Assembly: GCA_030649135.1 (NCBI GenBank)
Contig: JAUSGI010000008.1
Coordinates: forward strand, 96,001-160,000
Direction: 5' to 3'
Length of the DNA stretch: 64,000 bases
Source of the DNA: a bacterium
GTDB taxonomy: Bacteria > Patescibacteriota > Minisyncoccia > Phycocordibacterales > Zambryskibacteraceae
Shown here: in pieces, positions 4,629-54,464 of the stretch
Position numbering within the stretch: position 1 is the stretch's first letter
How the letters are laid out: each line of letters starts with the position of its first letter
Position numbers and translations under genes: made by a program
The notes under the pieces: generated by a model
Told to the model about the DNA's origin: nothing
The model's input: only the letters and a program-made list of their open reading frames with translations
The model's database searches: none

Positions 4629-5009
4629 TTATTTAATGACTGCTAAAATATTGTCTTCTTTCAAGAGATAAAGTTCCTCGCCGCCCTGTTCAACTTCGTC
4701 ATATCCGTATTTGGAAAAGATGACAACGTCGCCAACCTTAAGACGCACCGGTACCAATTTTCCCTCGATCCATTTCCCCTCCCCGACGGCTAAAACTTTA
4801 CCTTGAGCCGATTTCTCTTTGGTCACGGATTCAGGGAGAATAAAATTGAGTGGAGACTTTTTACCTTGAGCTTGCCCCGCCACGGCGGGGCGCAGTCGAA
4901 TCTCTTCTTCGGTAAAAGGACGAACCAGAACTCTGTCCCCAAAAGGCTTGATCTGGGCTTTTGCTTGCCCGGAGTTTTTGCGAGGGGTTTTTGTATTTTT
5001 CTTTTTCAT
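4629..5009 (-). CDS. groS: co-chaperonin GroES (Cpn10) with a ~20-aa basic N-terminal extension
   Basis: IKPFGDRVLVRP...GKVLAVGEGK...VKVGDVVIFSKYG, immediately upstream of groEL. Confidence 0.9.
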   Translation of the reverse strand: MKKKNTKTPRKNSGQAKAQIKPFGDRVLVRPFTEEEIRLRPAVAGQAQGKKSPLNFILPESVTKEKSAQGKVLAVGEGKWIEGKLVPVRLKVGDVVIFSKYGYDEVEQGGEELYLLKEDNILAVIK

Positions 5010-14088: not shown

Positions 14089-14114
14089 TCAGATGATTCT
14101 ATCACACTCAATAT

Positions 14115-14321
14115 CTAAGACATTTTGGGGATAATAAAGATGGCCAAAATGTATGCGACAAGTCCCGGTACCACCCCGCTGAATATAACTACGAGGAGCC
14201 AAACTAGGCGTAATGGCACTGGGTCAATGCCGAAGTACTCCCCCAGTCCTCCACAGATACCGGCAAAAACCTTGTTGGTATTACTGCGATATAATTTCTT
14301 GGTTTCCATATTGGTTTCCAT
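14115..14321 (-). CDS. PspC-domain membrane protein
   Basis: KKLYRSNTNKVFAGICGGLGEYFGIDPVPLRLVWLL then one TM. The start is set at METNMETKK, because the upstream part of the ORF reads through tRNA-like sequence. Confidence 0.7.
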   Translation of the reverse strand: METNMETKKLYRSNTNKVFAGICGGLGEYFGIDPVPLRLVWLLVVIFSGVVPGLVAYILAIFIIPKMS

Positions 14322-14360
14322 ATTGGAATTATAACAGATTTCAGGTATCGTATGAACTAT

Positions 14361-14381
14361 TGCGGGATCGTCTAATGGTAG
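14361..14381 (+). pseudogene. 21-nt fragment identical to the 5' end (acceptor + D-arm) of tRNA-Gln(TTG)
   Basis: TGCGGGATCGTCTAATGGTAG equals nt 1-21 of the intact tRNA-Gln(TTG) at 25213-25286. Confidence 0.7.
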
Positions 14382-14408
14382 CCTGCCCGCCATCGCTGGG
14401 AGTTGAGC

Positions 14409-14479
14409 TGGGAGATCGTCTAATGGTAGGACACCTCCCTCTGAAGGAGGTTATCTTGGTTCGAGTCCAAGTCTCCCAG
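14409..14479 (+). tRNA. tRNA-Gln(CTG), no encoded CCA
   Basis: Acceptor TGGGAGA/TCTCCCA (U1-A72 as in bacterial tRNA-Gln), anticodon stem CCTCC/GGAGG, loop CTCTGAA, T-loop TTCGAGT, discriminator G. Confidence 0.82.
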
Positions 14480-14483
14480 CTCA

Positions 14484-14575
14484 GGCCCTAGCAGGCGGGG
14501 ACATCGCCATCCCTGCCCCGCCGTGGCGGGGTGAAAAGGCGAGCATCTTGCTTGTCCCGGCCAGCCGGGCGGGAG
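14484..14575 (+). repeat. GC-rich palindromic spacer containing internal tRNA-Gln(TTG) fragments (GGACATCGCC, AAGGCGAG, CATCTTG) and hairpins CCCCGCCGTGGCGGGG and CCCGGCCAGCCGGG
   Basis: Direct comparison with the intact tRNA-Gln(TTG); see findings. Confidence 0.5.
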
Positions 14576-14597
14576 TCGAGTCCAAGTCCCGCAGCCA
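14576..14597 (+). pseudogene. 22-nt fragment matching the T-loop through the 3' end of tRNA-Gln(TTG), including CCA
   Basis: TCGAGTCCAAGTCCCGCAGCCA versus TCGAATCCAAGTCCCGCAGCCA in the intact gene. Its acceptor half is complementary to the fragment at 14361. Confidence 0.7.
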
Positions 14598-14645
14598 GGT
14601 TTGCTATAACTAAGCGCATGAACAAATGTGCTACAATAAGAACAT

Positions 14646-15536
14646 ATGAACAAAATAATCATTGCGCTGGCTGTAATCATGATTGCTGGTTTGGGTGTTT
14701 ACTTTATAAACAAGAGTCCTACAAAGGTAGTAAATCCTCCCGAAAGCCAGAATACTACTGCTACCACTACGCCCATAGCGAAAGAAGAAAATCCAAGCGA
14801 ATCGATTATCGGTAAATCGGTCGAGAATCGCGACATCATCGCCTACCACTACGGCACCGGTGAGACGGAACTATTGTTTATTGGCGGGATACATGGCGGA
14901 TATTCGTGGAATACGGCACTGGTCGCATTTGAGTTGATGGACTATCTCAAGGCAAGCCCCAATATCATTCCCAAGAATATAAAAGTGACGGTCATTCCGG
15001 TACTGAACCCGGACGGTTTGAATAAAGTTGTCGGCACTGCTGGTCGCTTTACCCCATCGGATGTGCCGTCGCCAATATCCGCCACGGTGGCTGGTCGCTT
15101 TAACGCCAATACCGTTGACCTTAATCGTAACTTCGACTGTGACTGGAAAGCTTCAGGCACATGGCAAAGCAAAACCGTCAGCGGCGGAAGCAGGGCTTTC
15201 TCCGAACCCGAAACCCGGGCAATCAAAAGCTACGTAGAATTAAACAAACCAGACGCAGTCGTGACCTGGTATAGTGCCGCAGGGGGTGTCTATGCCTCCG
15301 AGTGCGGTAAGGGCATTTCCGCCGAAACCCGGGCTATCACAAAAGAATTTGCCGATACCTCCGGCTATCCTGCTTTTGATGATTTCGACTTCTATGAGGT
15401 AACGGGCGACATGGTCAATTGGTTTGCCAAGAATAATATCCCAGCCATCAGCGTGCTTCTCACGAACCACACAGACACCGAATGGACAAAAAATCAGAAA
15501 GGCATCCAGGCTCTCCTCAAGTATTACGTCAAATAA
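14646..15536 (+). CDS. M14-family zinc carboxypeptidase-like protein (membrane-anchored), paralogue 1
   Basis: TM anchor, then GGIHGGYSWNTALVAFELMDYL and NRNFDCDWK motifs. Confidence 0.72.
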   Translation: MNKIIIALAVIMIAGLGVYFINKSPTKVVNPPESQNTTATTTPIAKEENPSESIIGKSVENRDIIAYHYGTGETELLFIGGIHGGYSWNTALVAFELMDYLKASPNIIPKNIKVTVIPVLNPDGLNKVVGTAGRFTPSDVPSPISATVAGRFNANTVDLNRNFDCDWKASGTWQSKTVSGGSRAFSEPETRAIKSYVELNKPDAVVTWYSAAGGVYASECGKGISAETRAITKEFADTSGYPAFDDFDFYEVTGDMVNWFAKNNIPAISVLLTNHTDTEWTKNQKGIQALLKYYVK

Positions 15537-25637: not shown

Positions 25638-26681
25638 CTATTTGACAGTGTCGGCGAGAGCAAGCTCGAGAGCCAGTTCTGGGATACTGGTGCGGCCGGA
25701 GTCTTCGTAAGCAGTAATGAAGCGCAGGAGAACGTCGGCAGTTAGGTCAGTCCCAGCTTTGTCTCTAAGGGTTTGCAAAAACTTAAAGTCATCTTCACTA
25801 ACTTCTCCGGCAATATATTCGTCCATACCTGCTTTGAGCCGCAGGAGAAAGAGGAAACGCAGGCGCTCGAGAATAAGTTTGGCGAAAAGTTTCATCTCGG
25901 CATTGGCTCCGGCGGCGCTCTGGATTGCTTTCATCCCCTTTTCTAAATCTTTTTCGACAATCGATTCGAGAATCTGGCGCACCAGCTCCGCTTTCGGCGC
26001 ACCAGTTACTTGTTCTATCTCCTCTCTGGTTATCTTCTTACTTTTGGTAGAAGAAAGCACTTTTTCCAAAATCCCATGCGCATCGCGGAAAGAGCCGTCA
26101 CCCAGTAGCGCCACCAGTTCCGCCGCGGCCGGCTCAAGCGCTGCGCCCTCCTTTTTCGCCACCGAGAGTGCGAAATCTTTGAGCGTCGCTTGATTGGGTT
26201 GTTTGAACGAAAAAGTTTGGCAACGAGAAATCACCGTCTCCGGCACTTTCTCAAGTTCGGTGGTAGCTAAGATGAAGACCACATGCGCCGGTGGTTCCTC
26301 AAGAGTCTTTAGAAACGCGTTCCAGGCATCTTTGGTAAGCATGTGCACTTCGTCGATAATGTAGACCTTATATTTGGACTCGAATGGCAAAGTATTGACC
26401 GATTCCCGAATCTCCCGCACGTCGTCGATACCACGGTTGGAAGCGGCGTCCATCTCGACGAGGTCATTGGCCGAGGTGCCAATTTCTCGCGACAAAATTC
26501 TCGCCATGGAAGTCTTGCCGGTACCTCGTGAGCCAGAGAAAAGGTAGGCATGGGAAATATTGCCGAGTTTGATTGCCCCTTCCAAAACTTTGACAATATG
26601 ACCCTGCCCGATAATATCTCCAAAGGTTTGGGGACGATATTTGCGGTAAAGCACTCCCCCGCTCTTCTCTCCTTTTTTCAT
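25638..26681 (-). CDS. dnaX: DNA polymerase III subunit gamma/tau (short form)
   Basis: HAYLFSGSRGTGKTSMARIL, IIDEVHML, SRCQ sensor. Confidence 0.9.
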   Translation of the reverse strand: MKKGEKSGGVLYRKYRPQTFGDIIGQGHIVKVLEGAIKLGNISHAYLFSGSRGTGKTSMARILSREIGTSANDLVEMDAASNRGIDDVREIRESVNTLPFESKYKVYIIDEVHMLTKDAWNAFLKTLEEPPAHVVFILATTELEKVPETVISRCQTFSFKQPNQATLKDFALSVAKKEGAALEPAAAELVALLGDGSFRDAHGILEKVLSSTKSKKITREEIEQVTGAPKAELVRQILESIVEKDLEKGMKAIQSAAGANAEMKLFAKLILERLRFLFLLRLKAGMDEYIAGEVSEDDFKFLQTLRDKAGTDLTADVLLRFITAYEDSGRTSIPELALELALADTVK

Positions 26682-27661
26682 GAACGTAGTATATCAGATA
26701 CTATTTTGTTAACCTCGTTTGCGTTGTTCGTTTCCATAAGTTTGGCGCGTAAATCCCCTGCTTTATCAAAGCCCGTAACGTAGGCCTTAAAATGTTTCTT
26801 CATCACAGAAAAGTTTTTGTACCCACCGAGCAGTTCTTCAAATAACTTTGTGTGCTCAACCAGCACCCGCAGTTTTTCTTCGGTTGCCGGAACATATCCT
26901 TCCACAAATAGCCACGGGTTTCCGAAAATGGCCCGGCCGAGCATGACACCATCACAGCCCGTCTCTTCGACTCTCATCCTTGCTTCTTTCAAATCTTTAA
27001 CATCCCCATTACCCAAAATTAAAGTGTCTTTACCACTTGCATCACGAATCTCGACTGCCAGTTTGACAAACTCCCAACGAGCGGGCACCTTCGACATTTC
27101 TTTCCTGGTACGAGCATGAATGGTAACCATCGCCACTCCCTCTTTAAGCATTTCTGACAGCCAGCTCTCCAGGTCAGGACGACTGTACCCTATACGAGTT
27201 TTGACCGAGACAGGTAGTGTGCTAGCCCCTTCTTTAGCCGCCCTTACAAGCTCCCGAGCCAGCACCACGTTCTTCATAAGTGATGCGCCGGCACCTTGTT
27301 TCTCGATACTTTTGTCCGGACAACCCATATTTATATCGACACCATCAAAGCCAAGCTCCTTTGCGAGCTCGGCGGCTTTTTTCATATGTTCCGGAGAGGA
27401 GGTAAAGAATTGCGCCACGATTGGCCGCTCCGCTTCGCTATATTCCAGATTCTTCAAAAGTTTCTTTTTCCCCTCTTCCGGCGCAAGTGCCAAGCCGTCG
27501 GCAGAAGTAAATTCTGTCCACATCACGGCGGGTTTACCCCGCCCACCTAGGCGGGGCGAGCCGTACTTAGCGATTATTCTGCGAAAAGCGGCATCCGTAA
27601 CATCCGCCATGGGAGCGAGGACGAAAACAGGTTTTTCTATTTTCTGCCAGAAATTATCCAT
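26678..27661 (-). CDS. tRNA-dihydrouridine synthase
   Basis: VLAPMADVTDAAFR..., GVDINMGCP, TIHARTR motifs. Confidence 0.9.
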   Translation of the reverse strand: MDNFWQKIEKPVFVLAPMADVTDAAFRRIIAKYGSPRLGGRGKPAVMWTEFTSADGLALAPEEGKKKLLKNLEYSEAERPIVAQFFTSSPEHMKKAAELAKELGFDGVDINMGCPDKSIEKQGAGASLMKNVVLARELVRAAKEGASTLPVSVKTRIGYSRPDLESWLSEMLKEGVAMVTIHARTRKEMSKVPARWEFVKLAVEIRDASGKDTLILGNGDVKDLKEARMRVEETGCDGVMLGRAIFGNPWLFVEGYVPATEEKLRVLVEHTKLFEELLGGYKNFSVMKKHFKAYVTGFDKAGDLRAKLMETNNANEVNKIVSDILRS

Positions 27662-47120: not shown

Positions 47121-47207
47121 TGGTGCGCCGGGCAGGATTCGAACCTGCGTAGACCAAAGGTCGAGGGATTTACAGTCCCTTGCGATTGACCGCTCCGCCA
47201 CCGACGC
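47121..47207 (-). tRNA. tRNA-Tyr(GTA), type II, CCA encoded
   Basis: Acceptor GCGTCGG/CCGGCGC, anticodon stem AGGGA/TCCCT, loop CTGTAAA, long variable arm, T-loop TTCGAAT, A + CCA. Confidence 0.85.
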
Positions 47208-47215
47208 AATAACCA

Positions 47216-47455
47216 TCAATTTATCAGTTTTTTCAAACCATTGCCACCTTTGTAAGATTTGATCTTCTTTTCTCTCTCAAAAGCTTCTTGTTGTCCCTCG
47301 AACAATTCCAAATGGACTATTTCCCACGGACAGCCAAGTTTTGTAGATAAATTTTGACCTTTATTATGTTCCTTCAGCCTCCTTTTATAATTATTTGAGC
47401 ACCCTATATAATATTTTCTATTCTTTTTGCTCTGAAGAATATATACATGCCACAT
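47216..47455 (-). CDS. GIY-YIG nuclease-superfamily protein (YhbQ/UPF0213-like)
   Basis: HVYILQS...KYYIGCSNNYKRRLKEHNKG matches the GIY-(x10)-YIG and R/E motifs. It ends 8 nt before tRNA-Tyr. Confidence 0.75.
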   Translation of the reverse strand: MWHVYILQSKKNRKYYIGCSNNYKRRLKEHNKGQNLSTKLGCPWEIVHLELFEGQQEAFEREKKIKSYKGGNGLKKLIN

Positions 47456-47471
47456 GTCCGTGCGATTGATT

Positions 47472-47523
47472 CCGCCCCGCCTCGGCGGGGCAAGCTCCGC
47501 CTTTACCCCGCTGTGGCGGGGAC
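47472..47523. repeat. pair of GC-rich palindromes (CCCCGCCtcGGCGGGG, CCCCGCtgtGGCGGGG); member of a recurring element family
   Basis: Shares extended similarity (TACCCCGCT..., GGCGGGGCAAG) with 54349-54391 and 14484-14533. Confidence 0.45.
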
Positions 47524-47575
47524 CGACACGATGGGGCTATTCTAATCGAAATCTGACGGACTTGCAAAAATACTT

Positions 47576-54348: not shown

Positions 54349-54391
54349 ATACCCCGCTTCACCCCGCCATGGCGGGGCGAGACGGGGCAAG
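54349..54391. repeat. GC-rich palindromic element (CCCCGCCATGGCGGGG) in the divergent tRNA promoter/leader region
   Basis: Family member; see 47472-47523. Confidence 0.45.
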
Positions 54392-54464
54392 CGCGCCTAT
54401 AGCTCAGCTGGTAGAGCAGATCCCTCTTAAGGATAAGGTCGCAGGTTCGATCCCTGCTGGGCGC
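54392..54464 (+). tRNA. tRNA-Lys(CTT)
   Basis: GCGCCTA TAGCTCAGCTGGTAGAGCA, loop CTCTTAA, variable AGGTC, T-loop TTCGATC. Confidence 0.85.

Follow-up and report, generated by a model that had tools for sequence, protein, structure and literature searches.

A complete tRNA-Gln(CTG) gene nested within a probably inactivated resident tRNA-Gln gene in a Patescibacteria genome

Described systems closest to the locus

Several kinds of elements are known to interrupt tRNA genes or to use them as insertion sites, and we compared them with a locus in a 64,000-nt stretch of a Patescibacteria genome (contig JAUSGI010000008.1 of assembly GCA_030649135.1, positions 96,001 to 160,000; hereafter the window). 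At positions 14361-14597 of the window, a complete tRNA-Gln(CTG) gene (the inner gene) is nested among four pieces of a second tRNA-Gln gene (the outer gene). In the searchable literature, neither nested tRNA genes nor GIY-YIG genes accompanied by tRNA fragments were found to be described for Patescibacteria; related descriptions concern group I introns in tRNAs, rRNA insertions in candidate phyla radiation (CPR) bacteria, T4 SegB, and Rickettsia palindromic elements (RPEs).

The free-standing GIY-YIG homing endonucleases of the T4 SegB type are encoded among or beside tRNA genes, their spread is tied to inheritance or duplication of the adjacent tRNA region, and partial or segmental tRNA duplications occur as by-products (PMC2330249, PMC13096335). 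In contrast, the tRNA-Gln locus of the window has no nuclease gene, its inserted unit lies inside the resident tRNA gene and brings a complete putative replacement tRNA, and its host is a cellular genome, not a phage; the Patescibacteria GIY-YIG proteins discussed below, known from sequence, have about 80 aa and comprise the catalytic domain only. Integrative elements that target tRNA genes likewise insert into them, restore a functional tRNA and leave partial copies. Here, unlike in those elements, no integrase is found at the locus, whose neighbours are a PspC-domain gene and two M14 peptidase genes; the breakpoint lies in the D-loop and leaves a 5′ fragment too, and the 118-nt insert provides a whole tRNA rather than a 3′ end.

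The short palindromes within the locus recall RPEs and repetitive extragenic palindromic (REP) repeats, which multiply in a lineage and insert into RNA genes. They differ from these in being much shorter (~20-26 nt) and nearly pure G+C in a 47% GC genome, in sharing a specific core (CTTG-CCCCGCC-N2-4-GGCGGGG), and in being strikingly concentrated in dead tRNA fragments; no RAYT-like transposase was noticed in the window, where no dedicated search for one was made. The group I introns in tRNAs of Patescibacteria come from the same phylum and also interrupt tRNA genes in ways missed by standard annotation tools, but they occupy the anticodon loop of tRNA-Asn and tRNA-Asp and are self-splicing ribozymes, whereas the insertions in the window measure 20-118 nt and contain no ribozyme, and one of them is a tRNA gene. 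Finally, the multi-intron and split tRNAs of archaea (Thermoproteales, Nanoarchaeum, Caldivirga) have interruptions in the D-loop, anticodon loop and T-arm, with GC-rich complementary flanks; the window locus differs in that it has no bulge-helix-bulge (BHB) motif at its junctions and yields no canonical tRNA after excision, its host is bacterial, and the evidence points to decay. We regard the locus as a probable variant of a kind already known, in which a selfish element damages a tRNA gene and replaces it.

The nested locus and its resident gene

We consider it probable, though not certain, that three insertions inactivated the resident tRNA-Gln(CTG) gene and that one of the three, a tRNA-bearing cassette, has taken over its function. 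The outer gene is most likely a dead remnant that now forms the leader and trailer of the inner tRNA. The locus and the one other tRNA-Gln gene that enters the comparison comprise the following features (comparison loci carry L numbers).

14361-14381, plus strand: 5′ piece of the outer tRNA-Gln (nt 1-21: 5′ strand of the acceptor stem, 5′ strand of the D-stem, D-loop), from BLAST and the match to L203
14382-14391, plus strand: left palindrome arm CCTGCCCGCC, at the edge of the D-loop insertion, pairing with 14494-14499 in the predicted fold
14392-14408, plus strand: cassette leader ATCGCTGGGAGTTGAGC, 17 nt, from the inverted repeat and the fold
14409-14479, plus strand: intact inner tRNA-Gln(CTG), acceptor TGGGAGA/TCTCCCA, no encoded CCA, from ARAGORN and Rfam
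14480-14493, plus strand: cassette trailer CTCAGGCCCTAGCA, 14 nt, from the inverted repeat and the fold
14494-14499, plus strand: right palindrome arm GGCGGG, at the edge of the D-loop insertion; its junction to the next piece is ambiguous by 1 nt
14500-14508, plus strand: second piece of the outer gene, (G)GACATCGCC (3′ strand of the D-stem, nt 26, 5′ strand of the anticodon stem), 10/10 and identical in L203
14509-14535, plus strand: disrupted anticodon loop, remnants ATC ... TGAA around a 20-nt palindrome CCTG-CCCCGCC-GT-GGCGGGG between C34 and T35, compared with the L203 loop CTCTGAA
14536-14550, plus strand: third piece of the outer gene, AAGGCGAGCATCTTG (3′ strand of the anticodon stem, variable loop, 4 of the 5 bases of the 5′ strand of the T-stem); L203 has AAGGCGAGTATCTTGG
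14551-14575, plus strand: 25-nt T-arm hairpin CTTG-TCCCG-N10-CGGGA-G in place of G53 and T54, from the sequence and a homologue in L109
14576-14597, plus strand: 3′ piece of the outer gene (remaining T-loop, 3′ strand of the T-stem, 3′ strand of the acceptor stem, discriminator, CCA), from BLAST and L203
25213-25286, minus strand: intact tRNA-Gln(TTG), a normal gene in its own right from which the outer pieces do not derive, from ARAGORN and Rfam (65 bits)

BLAST against the window matched nt 1-21 of the tRNA-Gln(TTG) gene to 14361-14381 (100% identity, E = 8e-7) and nt 53-74 to 14576-14597 (21/22, E = 5e-5). The two internal pieces, GGACATCGCC at 14499-14508 (10/10) and the third piece (14/15), have E values of 3.1 and 0.78 when taken alone, and all four pieces are collinear, in tRNA order, over a span of 237 nt. 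The outer gene, with its disrupted anticodon loop of 33 nt, was called by neither ARAGORN nor Rfam. The inner gene (14409-14479/80) matched the Rfam tRNA model over its full length with 63.4 bits (E = 1.7e-13), in agreement with ARAGORN, and is presumably the functional gene of the locus. The predicted fold of the 237 nt, at -120.5 kcal/mol against -97.2 kcal/mol for dinucleotide shuffles (z = -4.6), pairs the outer acceptor halves TGCGGGA/TCCCGCA and places the inner tRNA at the tip of a long helix. Palindromes in the anticodon loop and the T-arm correspond to CCCCGCCGTGGCGGGG (14516-14531) and CCCGGCCAGCCGGG (14556-14569), respectively.

The identity of the outer gene became apparent from syntenic contigs (L203, L206-L209), which were reached via homologues of the window's GroES. 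These share with the window the gene order groEL/groES, SecG, SBP, RNase J, MFS, a 144-aa protein, pyrG, tRNA-Gln and a DEAD-box helicase, with pyrG 87% and the helicase 86% identical, and their pyrG-helicase interval contains exactly one tRNA-Gln(CTG), intact (TGCGGGATCGTCTAATGGCAGGACATCGCCCTCTGAAGGCGAGTATCTTGGTTCGAGTCCAAGTCCCGCAG). The L203 gene agrees with the 5′ piece at 20 of 21 positions, having C for T in the D-loop, and with the 3′ piece at all 19 comparable bases (up to the discriminator, as L203 encodes no CCA); every comparable base of the four pieces is equal to that in intact tRNA-Gln(CTG) genes of the TGCGGGA type, except for a T-to-C change in GAGCATC. A G in the T-loop of the 3′ piece is present in the L203 gene and not in the TTG gene, and this difference, together with the residual C...TG around the anticodon hairpin, shows that the outer gene was of the CTG type. 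The 25 nt upstream of 14361 (atttcaggtatcgtatgaactaT; 'atttcaggtatcgta...ctaT') are homologous to the flank of a plain tRNA-Gln(CTG) gene (attttcaggtattgtaccttctaT) in L001, the closest relative (pyrG 89% identical). Because the single intact gene of the syntenic relatives matches all four pieces and the upstream flank is homologous to that in L001, the sequence comparison identifies the outer gene as the tRNA-Gln(CTG) resident between pyrG and the DEAD-box helicase gene, and an origin by duplication of the TTG gene is rejected. Relative to its intact orthologue, the window copy has gained 118 nt between nt 21 and 22 and a 20-nt palindrome between C34 and T35 with small changes in the loop, and it carries the 25-nt hairpin instead of G53 and T54. 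As to promoters, the motif GTAT[CT][GCT]T was present upstream of tRNA-Gln in just 16 of 133 loci and a consensus promoter scan returned nothing on the plus strand; we claim only the flank homology between the window and L001.

These results bear on most of what an initial annotation of the locus, made from its sequence, had proposed. The four pieces in their order, the complete tRNA-Gln(CTG) nested at 14409-14479, the complementary outer acceptor halves and both palindromes are all borne out by sequence, BLAST, ARAGORN, Rfam and the fold. Its description of a pseudogenised duplicate colonised by palindromic elements and a nested tRNA survives as regards the dead gene, the palindromes and the nested tRNA, and fails as regards the duplicate, since the presumed copy of the TTG gene is the resident CTG gene that remains intact in syntenic relatives. 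Similarly, the single T-loop substitution that it noted is a difference from the TTG gene but not from the resident type. It had also suggested that plain tRNA-Gln(CTG) genes with unrelated flanks in related genomes would reduce the fragment matches to chance; the comparison of the orthologous locus that it proposed did reveal plain genes, one intact copy each in L203 and L206-L209, and the matches are nonetheless not chance.

Two base-pair swaps in the acceptor stem (TGGGAGA/TCTCCCA versus TGCGGGA/TCCCGCA) and the whole anticodon stem distinguish the inner gene from the resident allele. The leader and trailer of the inner gene pair with each other and thereby lengthen its acceptor stem, and both recur around a tRNA-Gln(CTG) gene in two other genomes: in L156, where the leader is identical and the cassette is also adjacent to a pyrG that is just 63% identical, and in L146, where the leader has one change and the cassette adjoins unrelated genes. 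One leader/trailer pair in L146 is altered on both sides, from G-C to A-T. L156 has the cassette without any outer pieces, and in L146 the 5′ piece, the palindrome arm and the 3′ junction are still recognisable but decayed from GC to AT, with the cassette conserved. Because they are absent in the one and decayed in the other, the outer pieces appear to be dispensable, a result that covers these two genomes only. The distribution of the cassette fits horizontal movement better than local duplication and disagrees with the initial view of the nested tRNA as a paralogue of local origin. When viral contigs were scanned for phage carriage, the cassette had no match, and three chance matches to the junction motif were obtained, none with a tRNA.

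Acceptor stems at this position vary among closer relatives, with TGCCGAT in L001, TGCGGGA in L203 and a hybrid in L002. More generally, the pyrG-adjacent tRNA-Gln(CTG) genes of genomes whose pyrG is 85-89% identical differ in the acceptor stem (TGCCGAT, TGGGAGA, TGCGGGA), and the L002 tRNA equals the L203 tRNA except for two acceptor base-pair swaps (3-70 and 5-68), a difference that suggests allele turnover or gene conversion.

The short GC palindromes are not confined to the tRNA-Gln locus. The core CTTG-CCCCGCC-N2-4-GGCGGGG has 6-7 copies in the window against 0.08 expected, the looser pattern CCCGCC-N2-12-GGCGGG has six matches in the 64 kb (0.08 expected), and all-GC hairpins number 15 compared with 1.1 in shuffles; only 10 such hairpins occur in 1.39 Mb of other Patescibacteria loci, leaving out the L081 copy, which duplicates this locus. 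The palindrome copies have the flank CTTG/CCTG in common, the anticodon insertion and the arms at the edges of the D-loop insertion (CCTGCCCGCC ... GGCGGG) belong to one type, and L093 has the same anticodon palindrome insertion with the same flanks. The idea that the copies are parts of one longer repeat was rejected, as their flanks cannot be aligned past the CTTG...YRRAR ends. One copy lies in groES (gene 4629-5009, minus strand; palindrome 4874-4891, or 4871-4895 with flanks), where it forms an in-frame insertion of ~24 nt or 8 codons in the mobile loop (residues RL-RPAVAG) that no GroES homologues other than the closest share; L203 and L206 retain the palindrome in decayed form, with an inverted loop (GT versus AC). 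The dus gene (26678-27661, minus strand) contains two overlapping GC hairpins of the same family in its coding sequence (27527-27556). Outside these genes, between tRNA-Cys (minus strand) and tRNA-Lys (plus strand), a nested hairpin of the family (54358-54392, CCCCG-cttca-CCCCGCC-ATGG-CGGGG-cgaga-CGGGG) ends 16 nt upstream of tRNA-Lys. Since the intact L203 tRNA-Gln carries none, the palindromes of the outer gene were acquired after the lineages split, and judged from their sequence and distribution these palindromes behave as REP- or RPE-like selfish repeats. The T-arm hairpin is a different sequence, homologous to an insertion in L109 (CTTGTCCCGCTACGCATAGCGGGAG) at position 53/54 of the outer tRNA.

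Nested tRNA genes and GIY-YIG genes in other Patescibacteria

A metagenome scan with the shared T-arm/acceptor sequence retrieved 120 loci, in which each tRNA-Gln was aligned to its own flanks. Among 113 tRNA-Gln loci, a significant 5′ fragment was found upstream in 9 and a 3′ fragment downstream in 23, compared with none in shuffled flanks; because of hairpin insertions, these counts are underestimates. tRNA-Thr was not a clean control for flanking fragments, as its genes are tandem paralogues. Nested or flanked tRNA-Gln genes with complementary outer acceptor halves were present in L104 (TGCCAGA/TCTGGCA), L167 (TGCCGGG/CCCGGCA), L189/L117, L147, L109 and L062, the last of which is from a complete genome. 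The D-loop insertions in L147, L109, L175 and L189 are bounded by CTTGCCCCGCC ... GGCGGGGTGAAGT (CYTGCCC(C)GCC ... GGCGGGG), the same arms as in the window, and that of L109 comprises a GIY-YIG gene (Pfam PF01541) and a tRNA. Besides these arms, insertions of the type CCCCGCC...GGCGGGG, for which the initial annotation had advised a genome-wide search of tRNAs, were present in L093 and, twice, in a tRNA-Tyr fragment of the window described below. In L147, two successive 5′ remnants of one and the same tRNA-Gln lie at about -150 to -60 of the inner tRNA, one collapsed to an acceptor-only hairpin and the other with a 20-nt hairpin in the D-stem, which suggests repeated rounds of invasion at one locus.

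In a second arrangement, a 5′ tRNA fragment, in most cases with GC hairpins in it, is followed directly by the ATG of a ~80-aa GIY-YIG gene whose end lies at an intact tRNA or within it. This arrangement was found for tRNA-Gln in L004, L019, L099, L106, L111, L112, L115, L154 and L179, and for tRNA-Thr in L115. An hmmsearch census of 1.45 Mb showed that 13-14 of 35 GIY-YIG open reading frames (ORFs) end at most 35 nt upstream of a tRNA on the same strand, among them the one at the window's tRNA-Tyr and one at a tRNA-Thr. Within the tRNA-Gln locus (14100-14650), no GIY-YIG ORF was detected. The window contains this second arrangement elsewhere, for tRNA-Tyr:

47456-47529, minus strand: tRNA-Tyr 5′ fragment (~nt 1-31) with two CCCCGCC palindromes, directly upstream of the GIY-YIG gene, from comparison with the intact tRNA-Tyr
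47216-47455, minus strand: GIY-YIG gene encoding 79 aa (only the catalytic domain), flanked by the tRNA-Tyr fragment and the intact tRNA-Tyr (PF01541, E = 3.8e-16)
47121-47207, minus strand: intact tRNA-Tyr(GTA), 8 nt downstream of the GIY-YIG gene, from ARAGORN and Rfam

The fragment reads GTGTCGGT[ccccgccacagcggggtaaa]GGCGGAGC[ttgccccgccgaggcggggc]GGAATCAATCGCAC and is followed by GGAC-ATG of the GIY-YIG gene. The contact between gene and tRNA is closer still in L106, L112, L154 and L179: the GIY-YIG frame enters the downstream tRNA-Gln and stops at the TAA of its D-loop (GTC-TAA), so that the gene is fused to the 5′ end of the tRNA with no spacer, and its ATG follows GGTAGGAC of the upstream tRNA fragment, a possible Shine-Dalgarno-like sequence.

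We propose the following sequence of events. The cassette would be a nuclease-less derivative of GIY-YIG plus tRNA units that insert into the D-arm region of resident tRNA genes and bring a working copy with them, and short GC palindromes, as putative REP- or RPE-like selfish repeats, would accumulate in the dead tRNA pieces, where they may be tolerated or may serve to break homology between the repeated tRNA segments. Because the 5′ piece and the inner tRNA are just 27 GC-rich nt apart, a single precursor of ~240 nt would be transcribed from the promoter of the resident gene. RNase P and 3′ processing would then free the inner tRNA from the tip of the long leader/trailer helix; CCA would be added afterwards, given that the inner gene encodes none, and the outer RNA pieces would be discarded as its leader and trailer.

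Beyond the single locus, we tentatively suggest, as a possibility somewhat short of even, that it is the footprint of a class of mobile tRNA-replacement cassettes in Patescibacteria. Such a cassette would consist of a tRNA within a leader/trailer inverted repeat, often with a ~80-aa GIY-YIG gene and with GC palindromes as its bounds, and would enter a resident tRNA gene of the same identity in its D-arm or anticodon-stem region, killing it and replacing it with a variant allele. If this is true, cassettes would drive a rapid turnover of tRNA alleles between close relatives, and the acceptor variants TGCGGGA, TGGGAGA, TGCCGAT and TGCCAGA, three of which are found at this position among close relatives, could be traces of an arms race with nucleases directed against the tRNA or its gene. 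The locus itself probably captures the replacement of a tRNA gene in progress in a genome-reduced bacterium, with the dead resident still recognisable and the incoming copy within it. The findings also suggest that small selfish elements, GIY-YIG genes as well as GC palindromes, gather at tRNA genes in Patescibacteria, which may explain why tRNA-Gln alleles differ among genomes whose housekeeping proteins are 87-89% identical. For annotation, tRNA-like fragments with hairpins near tRNA genes in these genomes should be read as scars and not as split or intron-bearing genes.

Alternative explanations and further observations

Several points weigh against inactivation and replacement by a cassette as set out above. 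No GIY-YIG gene, transposase or integrase lies in or beside the locus, so that the link to a nuclease comes from homologous architectures elsewhere, and the predicted GIY-YIG nucleases (78-82 aa) consist, according to Pfam, of the catalytic domain only, with no DNA-binding domain. More than one order of events is conceivable: a palindrome already in place may have received the cassette in its loop, or a single step may have inserted a cassette with inverted ends. Over 44-55 nt, the outer 3′ part in L147 and L062 equals the inner tRNA, which calls for a recent duplication or gene conversion; selection would fit too. The outer pieces of the window are still GC-rich and well paired (z = -4.6), making a structural role in the precursor possible. 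Lastly, the 5′ junction of the locus is present in one assembly only.

Of the other explanations, the one that survives best, though we consider it unlikely, is that the outer pieces are kept for use at the RNA level, either as a precursor scaffold for the processing, stability or dosage of the inner tRNA or as a tRNA-like decoy RNA. The 237 nt fold far better than shuffles, the outer acceptor halves are complementary in every nested locus, and leader/trailer pairing of at least 5 bp is found at 17 of 135 tRNA-Gln loci but at 1 of 76 loci of other tRNAs. Pairing holds in 95% of cells across those 17 loci, and both sides have changed in 14 of 19 pairs; these figures include the innermost five leader/trailer pairs, which served as the selection criterion, and palindromic DNA repeats can mimic the signal without any RNA function. 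Complementary halves result in any case from splitting a stem that was already paired. The architectures, moreover, vary widely across loci, and the same cassette is found with decayed outer pieces (L146) or with none (L156).

Local duplication of tRNA-Gln followed by deletion and decay, with no mobile cassette, would leave a tandem array trimmed to 5′ and 3′ remnants around a survivor, and we regard this as improbable. Partial tRNA-Gln copies do lie downstream of intact genes at 23 of 113 loci (score >=26; none in shuffles), and some are identical to the adjacent gene (L147, L133, L062), as would fit recent duplication. At the window locus, however, the gene breaks off at nt 21 in the 5′ remnant and continues from nt 21/22 in the 3′ remnant, as expected of an insertion but not of independent deletions; two acceptor swaps and the whole anticodon stem separate the inner gene from the outer one; the inner gene and its flanks match cassettes elsewhere, one of them in a distant genome; and the syntenic relatives have a single gene.

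Splicing of the outer gene is very unlikely. The initial annotation had offered, as its second reading, a multiply interrupted precursor; its insertions would be removed by archaeal-type or other splicing, or be excised without religation, to give a second functional tRNA-Gln. Three points speak for this reading. The D-arm is exactly restored when 14382-14499 is removed; archaeal tRNAs with several introns have them at similar positions (D-loop, anticodon loop and T-arm); and Patescibacteria are known for unusual introns in their tRNA and rRNA genes (PMC13011429, PMC11270868). The tests at the locus were negative. Removal of the three insertions, with their boundaries shifted in all combinations by up to a few nt around the junctions, gave 1,176,120 constructs; ARAGORN recognised a tRNA in 5,377 of them (0.46%), with anticodons scattered over Gly, Phe, Leu, Trp, Gln and undetermined types. 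A custom hBHBh′ scan of 14340-14620 returned one motif, not at a junction, whereas shuffles average 2.8. The covariance-model check for introns that had been recommended, run with Rfam on 14200-14750 at E values up to 10, gave tRNA and chance-level matches and no group I or group II intron; the weak matches to CRISPR-DR10, SpF41 and mir-750 were judged to be chance. At gathering thresholds, Rfam reported only tRNAs in the window and 20 related loci. G53 and T54 are gone and the anticodon is split; the insertions (118, 20-24 and 25 nt) are far below the length of group I or group II ribozymes; the product would repeat the anticodon of the inner tRNA; and the outer pieces are decayed in L146 and absent in L156. 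Because no excision gives a proper tRNA, no BHB motif marks a junction, no group I or II intron is matched and the outer pieces have decayed in L146, we favour a dead remnant instead.

Support for the assembly is uneven along the locus. From 14453 on (the 3′ two thirds; 145 nt), the locus is identical in the separately built Logan assembly of run SRR13727527 (L081), a run that is possibly not independent of the window's data. Exact-protein look-ups with pyrG and three possible PspC starts, meant to reach another assembly that covers the 5′ junction, gave no record, and the only matches, the M14 peptidase (L081) and GroES (L202), both come from that run. An assembly chimera of strains with different tRNA-Gln alleles is hardly credible: the window does come from a metagenome-assembled genome, repeats of 13-20 nt are common to both alleles and the contigs of relatives often end at this tRNA (L002, L081, L209), but such repeats are below the usual k-mer length of assembly, the junction sequences (CCTGCCCGCC, GGCGGG and the two hairpins) are found in neither allele, the 3′ 145 nt are repeated in the Logan assembly, and the nested layout recurs in several unrelated metagenomes and in one complete genome (L062, CP174359).

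The loci around other tRNA-Gln genes yielded further conserved elements. About 20-130 nt downstream of tRNA-Gln in L019, L111, L169, L170, L171, L180, L184 and L192, a conserved element of ~100 nt (...CTATTCCGA...GCATACCTGCTGAGAGCAGTATTCAAGACAAAAAA) has a terminator hairpin at its end; nothing in Rfam matches it, and it may be a small RNA not yet described. Hairpins with loops like GAGCGAAGCGA (a GCGAAGC mini-hairpin with possible tandem G-A pairs) form arrays in L186, where they lie downstream of tRNA-Gln, and in L004, L097, L083, L076, L123, L167 and L201, and GTACTGA(G/A)GCCAG modules recur around tRNA-Gln genes and inside tRNA fragments; neither has an Rfam match.

In the window, pyrG lies 270 nt from the nested locus and has its matches in metagenome-assembled genomes of Patescibacteria (Paceibacteria/Parcubacteria) only, and the GC content is 47%. 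Of the neighbouring genes, that for the PspC-domain protein is on the minus strand, and its 5′ end contains an exact 12-nt tandem duplication (TGGTTTCCATAT twice, 14300-14323) by which the N-terminal residues are doubled (METN-METK).

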